Numbered from the stretch's first letter, positions 1 through 3,947 are shown. The stretch is DNA of 3,947 nucleotides from Dictyostelium discoideum (GCA_000004695.1 CH709157.1:1-3947); one strand, 5' to 3'. The notes: generated by a model not told the origin, from the letters alone. Numbers and translations: made by a program.

Positions 1-36
1 TATGATATTATGTATGATATTATGTATGATATTACC
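1..36. repeat. 12-bp tandem repeat tatgatattatg x3, in frame within the pol ORF (encodes NIIH NIIH NII)
   Basis: Direct reading of positions 1-34 gives tatgatattatg / tatgatattatg / tatgatatta. Confidence 0.8.
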
Positions 37-837
37 TCTTATAGAATTGTTAATCTGATCTGGAATATCAGGAAGTTTATCTACTATAACATCTTCGAAA
101 GAATCATTAATGAAATCATGTACTGCTTGTATCTCTTCTTCTTCTGGATTAGTTTTAGCCAGTATATCACAAAGCTGTGAAGGAATGCTTTCAACAAACT
201 TTGTAACTTGTTCTTTGATATCTTTGTCATCATCTAATAGATTGTGTGATTGTGACTGATTATCATTGGATACGGTAACGTGTTTTCTTGGAGCTTTTAC
301 ATTACAATATAATTGATTCGACTGTTGATAATTAATTTTGTATGTACTATTATTCAACTTGATAATTTTATCTTTTTGGTTAATGATAGAGTCCTTAAGG
401 ATATCATTACCGAAAAGTACATCAATGATATCCAACTCTATAATAAAGAAGGTATAAATTTCATTATTAACTTGTATATTGATTTGTTCAACAAACTCTT
501 CTTTGACCTCTAGTAAAGGGAATTTAATCTTGGCTTTAGTTTTGTGAACGTGATTCTTCATCTCATTTGAAATCAACCTCTTATTTATTAAACTAACATT
601 ACTTCCAGTATCGAGAATTAATTTGAATTGTTTTTCTTTGGAATGAGAGTTAATTATAATATTGGGTATATCCATGTTTTCTCTGTTTGGAACGATTAAA
701 CTATTGAGAGTCGGAATGAGAGCAGTATCACTTGTACCAGTACTATGTAATAATGAGATGATTGGTTTATTTGTTTCTTTATCGAATTTAATTGTATAAA
801 GCAATTCATCTTCTTCATCATTAATTAATTTAATTCT
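1..837 (-). CDS. Partial pol ORF of a Ty3/gypsy-type LTR retrotransposon: retropepsin domain plus the beginning of RT; 3' end lies beyond window position 1
   Basis: Hand translation of the minus strand gives 279 codons with no stop, against roughly one stop per 11 codons expected at this AT content. It contains the retropepsin active site NSHSKEKQFKLILDTGSNVSLINKRL and a downstream IDVLFGNDILKD flap-like motif. It then runs …EEEEIQAVHDFINDSFEDVIVDKLPDIPDQINNSIRGNIIHNIIHNII, which resembles the linker and RT entry of gypsy-type elements. There is an internal Met at 673-675 (…RENMDIPN…). The frame opens immediately after a TAA at 838-840. Confidence 0.75.
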
Positions 838-1554
838 TTACCAGAATTTAATCTCTTTGGACGATTGTATATGTTTACAGTATTGTTTTTTATCTTGAAT
901 ATTTGTTAACTCTGTTGGAGTATTGAATTCAATCTTCTGTGGTTTATACTTCATCTATGATTCAACAGCTTTTGGAATTGGAACGGTTGTATCAGGAACT
1001 AGTTTTATGCCATATGAGTCTTTGACGTATTCTTTAAGTTTGTTGATGTTTTTATGAACATCTTATTGCTGGTTTTGTTGATGTAACTGTTTAACAATGT
1101 TTTGATTATAACTGACTACGAAGAATCGGGAGGTCTTATTCTAAAGAACTTGTACTCATACTCTAATTGAACATCAGCAGTACCATGGATGAGATACACC
1201 GGATTAATTACATTGTGGTAACTCATAATGGCTTCGATGTTTTTTATAACATCTTGGGATGAGAAGCAATTACCATGGTTTGGCAGCTTCTTAGTCAGTT
1301 ATGAATAGAACCAAAGTCTTGGATCTAAAGTTACGGTGGATTAGCTTCTTCAATGTTTCACATTCAATTTTATAGTTGTCCTTAACCGATTCATTGTGGG
1401 TTGAAGCAATTGAAATAATTCATTTGATGCAGCACCATTGTCCATATTGGTCTTAAAGGTTGGTTCAACACCATTCTAGGAGCAGTGGATGGTAAATAGA
1501 TTCATGAAGATGACAGCAGTGGCATCGTTTTTTAAAGCATCAATGGTTTTAGCT
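838..1554 (-). pseudogene. Disrupted gag-like region: open stretches of 35-57 codons spread over three frames, separated by in-frame stops
   Basis: In the protease frame, reading upstream from 837: …NKTSRFFVVSYNQNIVKQLHQQNQQ*(1063-1065) DVHKNINKLKEYVKDSYGIKLVPDTTVPIPKAVES*(955-957) MKYKPQKIEFNTPTELTNIQDKKQYCKHIQSSKEIKFW*(838-840). Other frames give AKTIDALKNDATAVIFMNLFTIHCS*NGVEPTFKTNMDNGAASNELFQLLQPTMNRLRTTIKLNVKH* and KLPNHGNCFSSQDVIKNIEAIMSYHNVINPVYLIHGTADVQLEYEYKFFRIRPPDSS*. Individually these runs are only marginally longer than chance in AT-rich DNA. Confidence 0.3.
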
Positions 1555-1557
1555 TCA

Positions 1558-1794
1558 ATGGAATTGGTCTTTGATTTCTTTGAAACTTTCTCTGACTTCG
1601 ACGTCGGATACATCAGTGCTTTCAGTTGAATAAATATCATCATCGCCCTTAGTGGGACAAAAAGTCTTTTTTGATTTTACTTGAACATTAGTACCATCAT
1701 TGGAGGCGGTTGTCACTTCAGCGGCACGTTTGGCGGTGGAAGACACTTTGGCTTTACGGATGGCTTTCTTGGAAGGAGTAGTAGTTGATGACAT
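1558..1794 (-). CDS. 79-aa ORF with a basic Ser/Thr/Ala-rich N-terminus; possible gag N-terminus of the retroelement or a small independent protein
   Basis: ATG at 1792-1794 in the context aaagtcATGtca. Product: MSSTTTPSKKAIRKAKVSSTAKRAAEVTTASNDGTNVQVKSKKTFCPTKGDDDIYSTESTDVSDVEVRESFKEIKDQFH, stop TGA at 1555-1557. It is in the same frame as the protease ORF. An extreme A/T tract lies immediately upstream (1810-1890). Confidence 0.35.
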
Positions 1795-1809
1795 GACTTT
1801 CACCAACAA

Positions 1810-1890
1810 TTAAAAATAAAATTTATTTAATATAATTTAATTTTATAATTTAATTTATATAATTTAATTATATAATTTAATTTAATTTAG
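1810..1890. repeat. Pure A/T low-complexity tract built from ataatttaatt / tataatttaatt-like units
   Basis: No G or C between about 1813 and 1887. The taatttaatt motif recurs at least six times. Confidence 0.7.
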
Positions 1891-1907
1891 TAAGTATTAA
1901 TATATGT

Positions 1908-2093
1908 AACTGCTATTCCACTAATATATTTTTATTGTGGTGTCTTTATATTTTTTAATTGATAATAAATATTATCTTAAATTATTTCAATTATAACAAT
2001 GCATCAAAATAACTGTTATTCCACTAATAATTTATATTGTGGTGTCTTTATTTAACTGTTATTACACTAATAATTTATATTGTGGTGTTTTTG
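1908..2093. repeat. Three copies of a ~43-bp direct repeat (aactgYtattMcactaataWtttatattgtggtgtYttt). Copies 2 and 3 are tandem with a 43-bp period. Each copy holds a short internal hairpin (ccactaata / tattgtgg)
   Basis: Copy 1 at 1908-1949, copy 2 at 2011-2053, copy 3 at 2054-2093. A partial fourth copy, actgttattcctctaat, lies at 2266-2282. Confidence 0.7.
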
Positions 2094-2417
2094 TATTTGA
2101 GCATTATTATTAAATTAATTGATACAATCTTGTTTTATATTACTTTATAAAAGATGCATGTTTTCAATGTGAGTAGGAAGTGTCGTTGTACCGCCTAAGC
2201 AGTACAGCGTTAATTTTGCAAACAGAAAGGCCATTGTAATGCATTTTTATTTTGTTTTAAATACTACTGTTATTCCTCTAATCTGAAGAGTCGACTTCTT
2301 CATCATTAGGTGTCGTTGTATACGAAATATAAGGATTGTATCTAATTATTTGTTTTAATTTATTTGTTTAATGTTAAAATTAAAAAAAAAAGTGTAAATG
2401 TCACTCACACTAATCTT

Positions 2418-2494
2418 CAATCCATTGTCACTATTGTTCAATCTTTAATCGAACTAGTCCAATCTTTAATCGAACTAGTCCAATCTTTAATCAA
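2418..2494. repeat. 21-bp tandem repeat caatctttaatcgaactagtc: two exact copies, one truncated, one degenerate leading copy
   Basis: Degenerate copy caatccattgtcactattgtt at 2418-2438, exact copies at 2439-2459 and 2460-2480, truncated copy caatctttaatcaa at 2481-2494. Confidence 0.75.
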
Positions 2495-2808
2495 ATGTCA
2501 TTATTTAATTAATTCTACATGAAGGATAGAAAGAGTGAAAGGCTAATATCATAAAAGTAAACATACATAAAACAGATAATTAAAAGGTCGCTATGAAACT
2601 AAACCCAAAATCAGAATTTTTATTAATTTTAATATTTTTAAAATTTTAATTTAATTTAATTAAATTTAATAATTTATTTTTCGACTGAAAAAATAAAAAA
2701 ATAAAAAATTAAAAAATAAAAATTAAATGAAATATTTTTACATGGATGCGTGAATTTGTTATGTACTTGAGCTCATACTAACATTAAATTAATTTAGTTT
2801 TGAGTCTC

Positions 2809-3114
2809 TTACATCAGGTGTTTGTACTGACCAATTAAGGTATCGGATAATTGATAATCGGTTGGAACATCGAAATTGTTACTTGATTCATCTTCACTTT
2901 GTTCATTCTCGGTGTCAGAGATATCATGAGAAGGTTGGCTACGTGAATTGGTATTAGATGAGAACATAGGTTCTTTCATGAATCTTGTAAAGACTAGGGA
3001 AAGGTTGTTGATTTGATCCTCCATTGACTTCATTCTTAAATCAAAGGATTCAGCGCTATTATAGGCAGAGGTACTACTACTAGAGGCATCATTATTATTA
3101 ACAGTGGTAGACAT
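2809..3114 (-). CDS. Hypothetical 101-aa Ser/Asn-rich acidic protein
   Basis: ATG at 3112-3114 in the context taaaatATGtct, with an in-frame TAA two codons upstream, so the start is bounded. Product: MSTTVNNNDASSSSTSAYNSAESFDLRMKSMEDQINNLSLVFTRFMKEPMFSSNTNSRSQPSHDISDTENEQSEDESSNNFDVPTDYQLSDTLIGQYKHLM, stop TAA at 2809-2811. Base composition is distinctly less AT-rich than both flanks. No homologue was recognised. Confidence 0.45.
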   Translation of the reverse strand: MSTTVNNNDASSSSTSAYNSAESFDLRMKSMEDQINNLSLVFTRFMKEPMFSSNTNSRSQPSHDISDTENEQSEDESSNNFDVPTDYQLSDTLIGQYKHLM

Positions 3115-3235
3115 ATTTTATTGTTGATATCTAAAATTATAATATGAGAAAAATAATAATATTAAAAATTAATAAAGAGAAATAATTATTTGTATAAAAT
3201 TTGTGTGTGTGTGTATCTTAAATATATATAGGAGG
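3115..3235 (-). promoter_or_regulatory. Putative promoter region of the 2809-3114 ORF: A/T-rich leader, TATA-like atatatata (3222-3230), (TG)6 (3202-3214)
   Basis: The TATA-like run lies about 110 bp upstream of the ATG on the coding strand. The composition is typical of amoeba 5' flanks. No transcript evidence. Confidence 0.3.
3202..3214. repeat. (TG)6 dinucleotide repeat
   Basis: tgtgtgtgtgtgt read directly. Confidence 0.85.
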
Positions 3236-3333
3236 AATTCCCAAATAAAATAAATCAAATTGTTTTAGTTTTTAGTGCCACTATTTATACGTTTTTATTT
3301 TCTTAAAAATTTCGCAAAATCAAAAAAATAAGA

Positions 3334-3437
3334 GTTTTCGACCCTTCACAACTTTGTGCATAGTGTCGGTTCGGAATTTTTCAGTTTTTCGACCTTGCGC
3401 AATGATCGCGTCATTGTGCCGGTTCGAAATTTTTTAC
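3334..3437. repeat. Two degenerate ~50-bp tandem units, each ending in a B-box-like ggttcgRaatttt motif; a third, more degenerate ttcgaaaatttttt unit follows
   Basis: Unit A at 3334-3383: gttttcgacccttcacaactttgtgcatagtgtcggttcggaatttttca. Unit B at 3384-3437: gtttttcgaccttgcgcaatgatcgcgtcattgtgccggttcgaaattttttac. Identity is roughly 70-75%. Unit B contains a small hairpin caatga-tcgcg-tcattg (3399-3416). Confidence 0.55.
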
Positions 3438-3464
3438 TTTTCTTTCGAAAATTTTTTATTCTTC

Positions 3465-3482
3465 GAATGTTCTAGAACATTC
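3465..3482. promoter_or_regulatory. Canonical heat-shock element: four contiguous perfect alternating nGAAn/nTTCn pentamers inside a perfect 18-bp palindrome
   Basis: cGAAt gTTCt aGAAc aTTCt, i.e. gaatgttctagaacattc, which is self-complementary about the central ctag. The overlapping ttcgaatgttctag matches the classical CTnGAAnnTTCnAG consensus at 12 of 14 positions. A weaker fifth pentamer follows (taaaaa). Confidence 0.7.
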
Positions 3483-3536
3483 TAAAAAATTATCTTAAAT
3501 ATTTGGGAAATTCAAATAAATAAATGTTATTCATAA

Positions 3537-3551
3537 TATATATATATATAT
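3537..3551. repeat. (TA)7.5 microsatellite marking the 3' truncation point of the RT fragment
   Basis: tatatatatatatat read directly. On the minus strand it translates as …YHIYIYI…, i.e. non-RT sequence straight after the RPVLDL motif. Confidence 0.85.
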
Positions 3552-3558
3552 GATAATA

Positions 3559-3933
3559 TAAATCGAGAACTGGACGATGTAGATTCGTTCCAGGTTTTGG
3601 AACCGTAAACACGTTGGAGTAAAAAACGCGCTTTGAATAACGGTTTGGAAGTACTTGTTCGATGGCATCGTCTAATAACAAGTCTTGTACTTCCTTTGTG
3701 ATGCAATCTGATTTCGGACCCTCTGGAATTGAAATCGGAATTGGGTTTAGCATCGGCTTGAAGTTTGGAAGCAGATGGACTTTTAATCCATTTACGACCT
3801 CTTGACAAAAGTTTGGAAGACCCAATTCTTTCCAAACTTGTTTGTGGTGGAACAGACGTCCACCTACTGGTAAGTTTACTTCTTGTTCTTCTGAAAACGG
3901 TTGTTGGTACCGTTGGCAGACTTGGTATTGTTG
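3559..3933 (-). pseudogene. Truncated reverse-transcriptase N-terminal fragment of a second retroelement (DIRS-like or retrovirus-like RT; DIRS-1 if the host is Dictyostelium)
   Basis: Minus-strand frame, TAG at 3934-3936 then open: QQYQVCQRYQQPFSEEQEVNLPVGGRLFHHKQVWKELGLPNFCQEVVNGLKVHLLPNFKPMLNPIPISIPEGPKSDCITKEVQDLLLDDAIEQVLPNRYSKRVFYSNVFTVPKPGTNLHRPVLDL. The GGRLxxFxxxW…G…P segment followed by F-VPK-(K/P)-G…RPV-DL is the conserved entry to RT domain 1. Compare retroviral VKKPGTNDYRPVQDLR and DIRS-type F.VPK..G..RPV.nL, both recalled from memory. Homology stops at the (TA)n run. The track ORFs 3490..3825 and 3527..3835 are this frame and an overlapping spurious frame. Confidence 0.6.
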
Positions 3934-3947
3934 CTACCCCTGATGCA

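Follow-up and report, generated by a model that had tools for sequence, protein, structure and literature searches.

Programmed readthrough of a stop codon located between gag and pol is a known expression strategy of MuLV-type retroelements. Among the retrotransposons of Dictyostelium, Skipper was reportedly described by Leng et al. in 1998 as an element with an in-frame stop codon overcome by readthrough, with a pseudoknot and with a three-ORF organization. Dd-Skipper-1 of D. discoideum is a chromovirus-type Ty3/gypsy element. Its length is 6998 bp with an LTR of 390 bp (Spaller et al. 2016, Table 1; PMC5006619), and the polypyrimidine tract found in place of a tRNA primer-binding site is a feature of Skipper (Spaller et al. 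2016, PMC5006619). The LTRs of Skipper-2/DGLT-P and of DGLT-A measure 208 bp and 265 bp, respectively, and both of these elements are associated with tRNA genes (PMC5006619). Nested clusters of DIRS-1 and Skipper have been described at the centromeres of D. discoideum (PMC5633606). In a recent preprint, Skipper is cited as having an in-frame stop that is expressed by readthrough, and the same preprint presents the Tj1 and Tosmo elements of fission yeasts as readthrough elements with a conserved TGA-CT context (bioRxiv 10.1101/2022.12.06.519325).

The window, that is the whole stretch of DNA which was analysed, is an entire unplaced contig of D. discoideum AX4 (3947 bp), on the minus strand of which a degenerate Skipper-1 LTR retrotransposon is represented by its 5' part, comprising the LTR, the polypyrimidine tract, the leader, a gag remnant and the protease. 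The full-length elements used for comparison (L003, L005 and L006) were reached via three 382-aa AX4 proteins bearing the UniRef name 'Gag'; the intact AX4 Gag of 382 aa is 99% identical to the gag of a further copy, L002, the 389-bp LTRs of which form a 100% identical pair. The reference copy L005 (6870-13866) is 6997 bp long, with LTRs of 390 bp that are 100% identical to each other, and since these values (6997/390 bp) match those of Dd-Skipper-1 (6998/390 bp, PMC5006619), L005 was identified as Skipper-1. The Pfam domains RVT_1, RT_RNaseH, Integrase_H2C2, rve and a Tf2-type SH3 were detected in ORF2 of L005, together with a C-terminal Chromo match that was sub-threshold (E=0.0011, 19.2 bits vs a gathering score of 25.1). 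The nucleotide identity between the window and L003-L006 was 95.5% in the protease region, 95.4% in the pro N-terminus and 90% in gag, and the LTR of the window was ~82% identical, gaps included, to the LTRs of L005 and L002, with 11% substitutions. The element in the window is a copy of Dd-Skipper-1, and a decayed one. The homologues of its open frame are fragmentary proteins in new assemblies of D. discoideum and D. cf. discoideum, and in the homology search no protein match of this frame was named Skipper. An identity with Skipper-2/DGLT-P or DGLT-A was also considered, and was ruled out by the LTR length, by the lack of a tRNA gene (none was found within the window) and by the match to the 6997-bp copies.

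Table 1. Features of the decayed Skipper-1 copy and of its surroundings in the 3947-bp window
Feature	Position	Strand	Basis
12-nt tandem repeat TATGATATTATG x2.8, contig end	1..34	.	in-frame duplication vs master GNIIHNIIIKK
Open frame, 279 codons: Skipper protease + linker	1..837	-	95.5% identical to master copies
DDB_G0294228, partial (annotated part of the open frame)	675..1	-	100% identical to AX4 hypothetical protein
TAA opening the 279-codon frame	838..840	-	8 other copies compared: no stop, neither insertion
pro N-terminus (pre-protease), post-stop codons ~42-133; not gag	838..1111	-	alignment to L005, L002
Short residual piece between two deletions	1112..1159	-	alignment to L005
gag remnant, ATG 1797-1795, codons 1-221 of 382	1160..1797	-	alignment to L005, L002
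Untranslated leader, 43-bp repeats at 2010-2092	1798..2381	-	3.0% substitution divergence from L005
Polypyrimidine tract, C then T10, directly after LTR	2382..2392	-	sequence; as in L005
5' LTR, Skipper-1, TG...CA, 421 nt	2393..2813	-	end-to-end alignment with the identical LTRs of L002, L005
DIRS-1-like element, host of insertion, same orientation as Skipper	2814..3562	-	matches in L008, L001, L010

The copy was annotated by alignment to L005 and L002, and every lesion was read directly from these comparisons (Table 1). The canonical LTR has 390 nt; that of the window is longer, with insertions of 22 nt and 12 nt, including a 21-bp tandem repeat (x2.6, at 2439-2492), and it ends in ...ACA, followed by C(T)10. 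The leader is 86 nt (two units) shorter than in L005 and shows 41-nt and 13-nt deletions in AT-rich repeats. In the gag remnant, deletions of 2, 4 and 23 nt were found at about 1594, 1402 and 1281, as well as two nonsense changes, CAG>TAG at 1478-1476 and TAC>TAA at 1293-1291. A 147-nt deletion (junction 1160/1159, L005 8665-8811) and a 415-nt deletion (junction 1116/1115, L005 8856-9270) come next, and the latter took out the CCHC zinc knuckle, the gag TGA with the downstream stem region and the first ~40 pro codons. The CX2CX4HX4C knuckle, which in the reference copies reads CLNCGKSNHSTSTC, is absent from the window because its site falls within the 415-nt deletion; this is a loss through decay and no argument against Skipper-1 ancestry. 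Since the 44-nt piece left between the two junctions (1159-1116) aligns weakly to L005, the two events may instead represent a single deletion of ~606 nt with filler. In the pro N-terminus two codons have become stops (CAT>TAA at 1065-1063 and GAG>TAG at 957-955), an A-run has gained 1 nt at 891, and the 5 nt AATTA are duplicated at 835-831. From 830 to 13 the window has neither an indel nor a stop relative to L005.

The insertion site could be delimited on the other side of the LTR. A DIRS-1-like ORF starting from 3114 is interrupted by the Skipper LTR at 2813/2814 and runs into a TAA inside it. The stretch 2819-3562 is contiguous in L008, and its terminal-repeat-like part, 3250-3562, was found in both orientations beside Phage_integrase and RVT genes in L001 and L010, a recurrence that would be the behaviour expected of a DIRS-1 terminal repeat. 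The Pfam search on the flanking ORFs gave no match. The remaining end of the contig, 3563-3947, matches other repeat fragments, one of them within a gene of L001 that has a weak RT_RNaseH_2 match.

In the initial annotation 1-1120 was described as an intact PRO-pol (protease-RT) frame, opened by a single in-frame TAA and preceded by a badly degraded gag-like sequence. The minus-strand frame is indeed open from 837 to 1, that is for 837 nt or 279 codons, and the in-frame stops reported upstream of it (TAA 840-838, TAG 957-955 and TAA 1065-1063) are all present. It contains the LILDTGSN motif, with DTG at 612-604, and its Pfam matches, RVP (E=0.011) and Peptidase_A3B (E=0.0085), are both weak and below the gathering score. 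In the intact polyprotein the frame corresponds to residues ~134-406 counted after the stop, and the Pfam RT domain begins there at residue 459. The frame thus holds the protease with a linker, and the name PRO-pol (protease-RT) goes too far, since the contig end truncates the frame about 50 residues before the RT domain; the 279 codons are a lower bound, as the frame is cut at base 1 inside the 12-nt tandem duplication. The name gag for the upstream sequence is appropriate for 1160-1797 and has to be given up for 838-1111, which is the N-terminus of pro. For the same reason the alternative offered at that time, according to which the upstream sequence is not gag at all, is half right: it applies to the pro part and fails for 1160-1797. 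The coding-like runs which were seen to jump between frames upstream reflect real indels relative to the intact copies, and the alignment to these copies confirmed that the upstream lesions are real decay.

The true gag-pro junction could be examined in the intact elements. In L003, L005 and L006 there is one in-frame stop, the TGA at codon 383, which comes after 382 gag codons and is followed by 1427 open codons, the context of the junction being ...KKQQ*LDEGDESK...; the same gag-TGA-pro arrangement was found in L002. The single in-frame stop between gag and pro, which had been given for Skipper in the initial annotation, is indeed present in the intact copies. The TGA and its CAA-TGA-CTC context were identical in all copies spanning the site, including L001 and L007 (~90% identical overall). 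The junction of the family, CAA TGA CTC GAT, is accompanied downstream by a stem, GGUGAUGA...UCAUCACC, in which the old copies show three changes, all of them keeping the pairing via G-U. According to the literature, readthrough of the UGA is presumably the mechanism by which Skipper-1 is expressed. The single-frame gag-UGA-pro-pol layout of intact Skipper-1 is confirmed by this comparison on new long-read assemblies, with UGA-CUC kept even in old copies. In L005 the gag TGA is located at 9147-9149, 134 codons upstream of the equivalent of 838-840. A single in-frame stop of this kind between gag and pro-pol is missing from the window, the site being deleted.

The TAA at 838-840 had been proposed to be this programmed stop. 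Since the predicted proteins of other assemblies that read through the TAA position have intron-containing gene models, the comparison was redone on DNA. In this alignment all 8 other copies have a continuous frame at the equivalent of 838-840, reading ...NSSKELINDEEDELLY; a stop conserved between two coding regions was found at this place in 0 of the 8, and a continuous frame without a stop is just what had been named beforehand as speaking against the proposal. Both the 1-nt insertion at 891 and the 5-nt duplication at 835-831 occur in the window copy only (0/8 other copies). The master reads AAT TCT AGT AAA GAA TTA ATT AAT GAT (N S S K E L I N D) in this region, and the window, in the ancestral frame carried through the +1 at 891, reads ...TCT GGT AAA GAA TTA AAT TAA..., while the downstream frame read backwards gives TGG TAA AGA. 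The TAA thus straddles two ancestral codons, its T coming from the end of GGT (Gly; Ser in the master) and its two As from the beginning of AAA (Lys), and as a triplet it was ancestrally out of frame. The +1 and +5 insertions sum to +6 and restore the frame, with a 56-nt interval between them through which no frame passes, and the TAA stands in frame because the AATTA duplication compensates for the insertion at 891. Since these insertions are absent from the 8 other copies, the TAA is a copy-specific by-product of decay and not a recoding signal.

It is therefore almost inconceivable that a Skipper-like element has its programmed stop for gag-pro readthrough at 838-840. Skipper does have a single in-frame gag-pro stop, but this real stop is the deleted TGA, the sequence upstream of 838 is pro and not gag, and the TAA, which no other copy has, overlaps ancestral Gly-Lys codons and needs two private insertions to come into frame. 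For the 100 nt downstream of the TAA the predicted fold is slightly better than for shuffled sequences (z=-2.09, 6 of 200 shuffles being as good), but the stop is unique to this copy, and given the missing conservation the downstream fold would carry no weight. The case calls for caution in general, since the stop bounding the longest open frame of a decayed element can come from compensating frameshifts instead of programmed recoding.

The distribution of the damage along the copy is uneven. All of the 11-12 disabling lesions are situated 5' of 831, and there are seven coding indels 5' of this position and none 3' of it, the indels showing a stronger contrast than the stops. The substitution divergence from the master was 7.1% in gag, 5.5% in pro-N and 5.6% in the open region; the private substitutions, defined as changes in the window absent from every other copy, amounted to 27/635 (4.3%), 9/274 (3.3%) and 23/819 (2.8%), respectively. 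If random substitutions in the open region follow the observed mutation spectrum, 7.1% of them would make stops, which means about 1.6 expected stops from the 23 private changes of this region; none was observed, with a probability of about 0.2. When uniform decay was simulated with 5-7 indels and 52-120 substitutions, the pre-specified open region stayed clean in 0.3-1.9% of the runs (P about 0.01-0.02), while a clean stretch of at least 819 nt anywhere in gag-pro appeared in 4-16% of them, and in 9-16% near the observed lesion numbers. The latter figure is the fairer one, because the longest open frame was picked after seeing the sequence. The contrast between the decay of gag and that of the protease is suggestive and not significant, and it is compatible with uniform decay.

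The other copies were also compared in this respect. The old copies L007, L008 and L011 are likewise intact across the protease region, and in five old copies the disabling lesions numbered about 12 per 1000 codons in gag plus pro-N vs about 3 in the protease region, an about fourfold difference which has to be read with caution, the other copies having been ascertained via a protease-frame search that favours intact protease ORFs. Since these copies were found through their protease ORFs, the protease intactness of L007, L008 and L011 is not unbiased support. It seems very unlikely to us that in Skipper-1 copies in general gag and the pre-protease segment disappear sooner than the protease segment does. 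If it were true, gag-defective Skipper RNAs might be propagated in trans with a cis need for pro-pol, or the host might use the protease region; a faster loss of gag would suggest trans propagation or host use provided that it is not an ascertainment artefact.

In the initial annotation it was also suggested that pol is under continuing selection, for instance as a domesticated sequence, and a comparison of pro and gag in other copies was recommended. Relative to the master, the window had a pN/pS of 0.6 for gag and of 0.86 for pro-N, and one of 0.16-0.21 for the open region. Among the private changes of the open region 12 were synonymous and 11 non-synonymous, while gag plus pro-N had 7 synonymous ones and 29 that were non-synonymous or created a stop (Fisher P=0.012), a difference which by itself would resemble selection on the protease region. 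The open-region pN/pS was, however, 0.12-0.21 in L001, L007, L008, L010 and L011 as well, and copies which are dead in the same region have equally low values: 0.18 in L001 (1 stop) and 0.21 in L010 (3 stops), compared with 0.16 in the window. Because stop-carrying copies share it, the low pN/pS is a property of active Skipper lineages and not of the locus. Purifying selection specific to the locus was thus not found, the window value of 0.16 being the same as that of dead copies, and the comparison run on the other copies did not reveal any selection specific to the window copy either. By these ratios, the protease is more constrained than gag or the pre-protease segment while Skipper lineages are active.

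Continuing selection on the protease frame, whether as a domesticated gene or in a gag-defective lineage mobilised in trans, is in our opinion very unlikely. What could be brought up for it is the composition of the private changes, half of them synonymous in the open region and mostly non-synonymous upstream, the position of all 11-12 lesions upstream of the protease frame and the annotation of the locus as a gene, DDB_G0294228; the first of these is weighed against the equally low pN/pS of copies with stops in the protease region, and the second is within chance after allowing for the post hoc choice of the clean stretch. No mention of DDB_G0294228 was found in the literature, nor any paper naming it, and the contig is a nested DIRS-1/Skipper repeat cluster. 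With gag, its stop and the beginning of pro missing, the frame has no normal translation route. The best protein match in other D. discoideum assemblies is 92%, and no protein of more than 92% identity is called in them, which is unlike a conserved host gene. The exact-product look-up of P0003 and of the 80-aa gag N-terminal ORF gave no other locus on record, and P0117, with which P0003 forms a cluster, is another degenerate copy. The suggestion of continuing selection or domestication is therefore not supported.

The abrupt shift in the lesion density and in the ratio of non-synonymous to synonymous changes near 831-891 could also arise if the contig were chimeric, a join of two Skipper segments of which the one from 1 to ~830 had decayed less than the other. 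Such a joint could come from gene conversion or recombination between copies, or from a mis-assembly of shotgun reads of different copies, and the window is a short unplaced repeat contig which ends in a tandem duplication. The phylogenetic position is, on the other hand, the same in all three regions: at the diagnostic sites which distinguish old from young copies, 'young-like' states were found at 12/14 in gag, 13/15 in pro-N and 10/13 in the open region (80-87% by region), and these sites gave no signal of a mosaic or chimera. The densities of private substitutions (4.3%, 3.3% and 2.8%) do not differ significantly, and among the copies compared no closer donor copy was found. We regard a chimeric origin as very unlikely.

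Taken together, the locus is very probably a dead Skipper-1 copy situated in a DIRS-1-like element, the TAA of which arose by decay and the protease of which is open by chance and by selection preceding the insertion. The active Skipper-1 has 382 gag codons, an in-frame UGA and a 1427-codon pro-RT-RNaseH-IN-chromodomain frame, presumably translated via readthrough. A copy of it would have been inserted into the DIRS-1-like element and would then have decayed as a dead copy. The 415-nt deletion took away the UGA together with the gag sequence before it and the pro sequence after it. What broke gag were three small deletions that shift the frame, along with two nonsense changes; the beginning of pro was broken by two nonsense changes and by the pair of insertions (+1 and +5) which jointly restore the frame. 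The TAA at 838-840 is simply the stop that one encounters first on following the downstream frame back into the 56-nt frame-shifted stretch. The protease part has so far escaped a disabling hit, partly by luck, and much of its 5.6% divergence probably predates the insertion, having accumulated on an active lineage under purifying selection; the changes in the protease would be mostly synonymous because of this earlier history.

A two-parameter model fitted by hand, which is our own arithmetic on the private-change counts and no formal likelihood analysis, gave a pre-insertion divergence of about 3.2% and a post-insertion divergence of about 2.2%; with region-specific constraint taken from the other copies, it fits the six counts acceptably (chi-square about 7.6, 4 df). 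We infer that chance and pre-insertion selection together caused the uneven decay, and no special cause has to be invoked for the intact protease frame. The value of this ordinary finding is mainly one of annotation: DDB_G0294228 is what remains of the protease in a dead Skipper-1 copy that lies within DIRS-1-like sequence.

The true junction of Skipper-1 has the same UGA-CU context as the readthrough elements Tj1 and Tosmo. Unlike these elements, the window has no such junction, since it was deleted, and the TAA at 838-840 stands in a UAA-A context and is itself conserved in no copy. Dd-Skipper-2 (formerly DGLT-P) and DGLT-A are, like Skipper-1, Ty3/gypsy elements of the same genome, and every copy of them is degenerate; the window differs from both in having the Skipper-1 LTR, no tRNA gene and 90-95% nucleotide identity to Skipper-1. 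Compared with intact Dd-Skipper-1, the copy in the window is dead: it has lost the CCHC knuckle, the gag UGA stop and the beginning of pro by deletion, the RT, RNase H, IN and chromodomain fall past the contig end, and five frameshifting indels and five nonsense codons (including the weakly aligned 1118-1116) are present. With Dd-Skipper-1 it shares the LTR sequence with its TG...CA ends, the polypyrimidine tract replacing the primer-binding site, the leader with 43-bp repeats, the gag N-terminus and the DTG protease, and the nesting of Skipper in DIRS-1-like sequence seen here is typical of the centromeric Skipper-1 clusters.

The true recoding site of Skipper-1 is the CAA UGA CUC at 9147-9225 of L005, the intact copy that served as alignment reference. 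This site lies outside the window, and its equivalent is missing from the window copy, where the region was deleted at the junction 1116/1115. A local hairpin (GACUC...GAGUC) is situated directly 3' of the CAA UGA CUC, and a longer stem downstream of the UGA is formed in the same L005 interval by GGUGAUGA and UCAUCACC, which are approx. 45 nt apart. This longer stem differs in the old copies L001 and L007 by three changes, namely one A>G and two C>U, each of which retains the pairing via G-U. The MFE z-score was just -1.2.

Four copies (L001, L007, L010, L011) were compared with the master copies. Their synonymous divergence amounted to a pS of 0.16-0.19 in the protease region and was higher in gag, with a pS of 0.22-0.28, and the disabling lesions were about fourfold denser in gag and the pre-protease N-terminal part of the pro frame than in the protease region. 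The difference in lesion density may be explained by ascertainment through protease ORFs; the same ascertainment does not obviously explain the pS difference.

A further Skipper-1 copy, L002 (5692-14097), has an intact gag and 389-bp LTRs that are 100% identical; its RT region is broken up and partly duplicated (9476-10169 versus 11141-11916, 88% identical). This copy is flanked by 2.9-kb inverted repeats, 98% identical to each other.

Repeats and DIRS-1-like segments of the window
Feature	Window position	Remark
Perfect 12-nt tandem repeat, x2.8	1-34	contig end
21-bp unit x2.6, inside LTR	2439-2492	one copy in L002 and L005
Leader 43-bp repeat array	2010-2092	two units (86 nt) fewer than in L005
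DIRS-1-like terminal repeat	3250-3562	
Start of first ORF of DIRS-1-like element	2814-3114	interrupted by Skipper LTR at 2813/2814

The 12-nt repeat is an in-frame duplication of a motif of which the master (GNIIHNIIIKK) already has an imperfect repeat, and it could be either a true duplication or an assembly-edge artefact. The 21-bp and 43-bp repeats are minisatellites of variable copy number in the non-coding parts of Skipper. The DIRS-1-like terminal repeat contains palindromic TTCnnGAA-type motifs, e.g. cttcgaatgttctagaacattc at 3459-3480, which resemble heat-shock elements.

In the full-length intact copies (L003, L005, L006; 9150-13430) pro and pol constitute a single unbroken frame of 1427 codons 3' of the gag UGA; the original Skipper description of 1998 reportedly presented pro as an ORF of its own.
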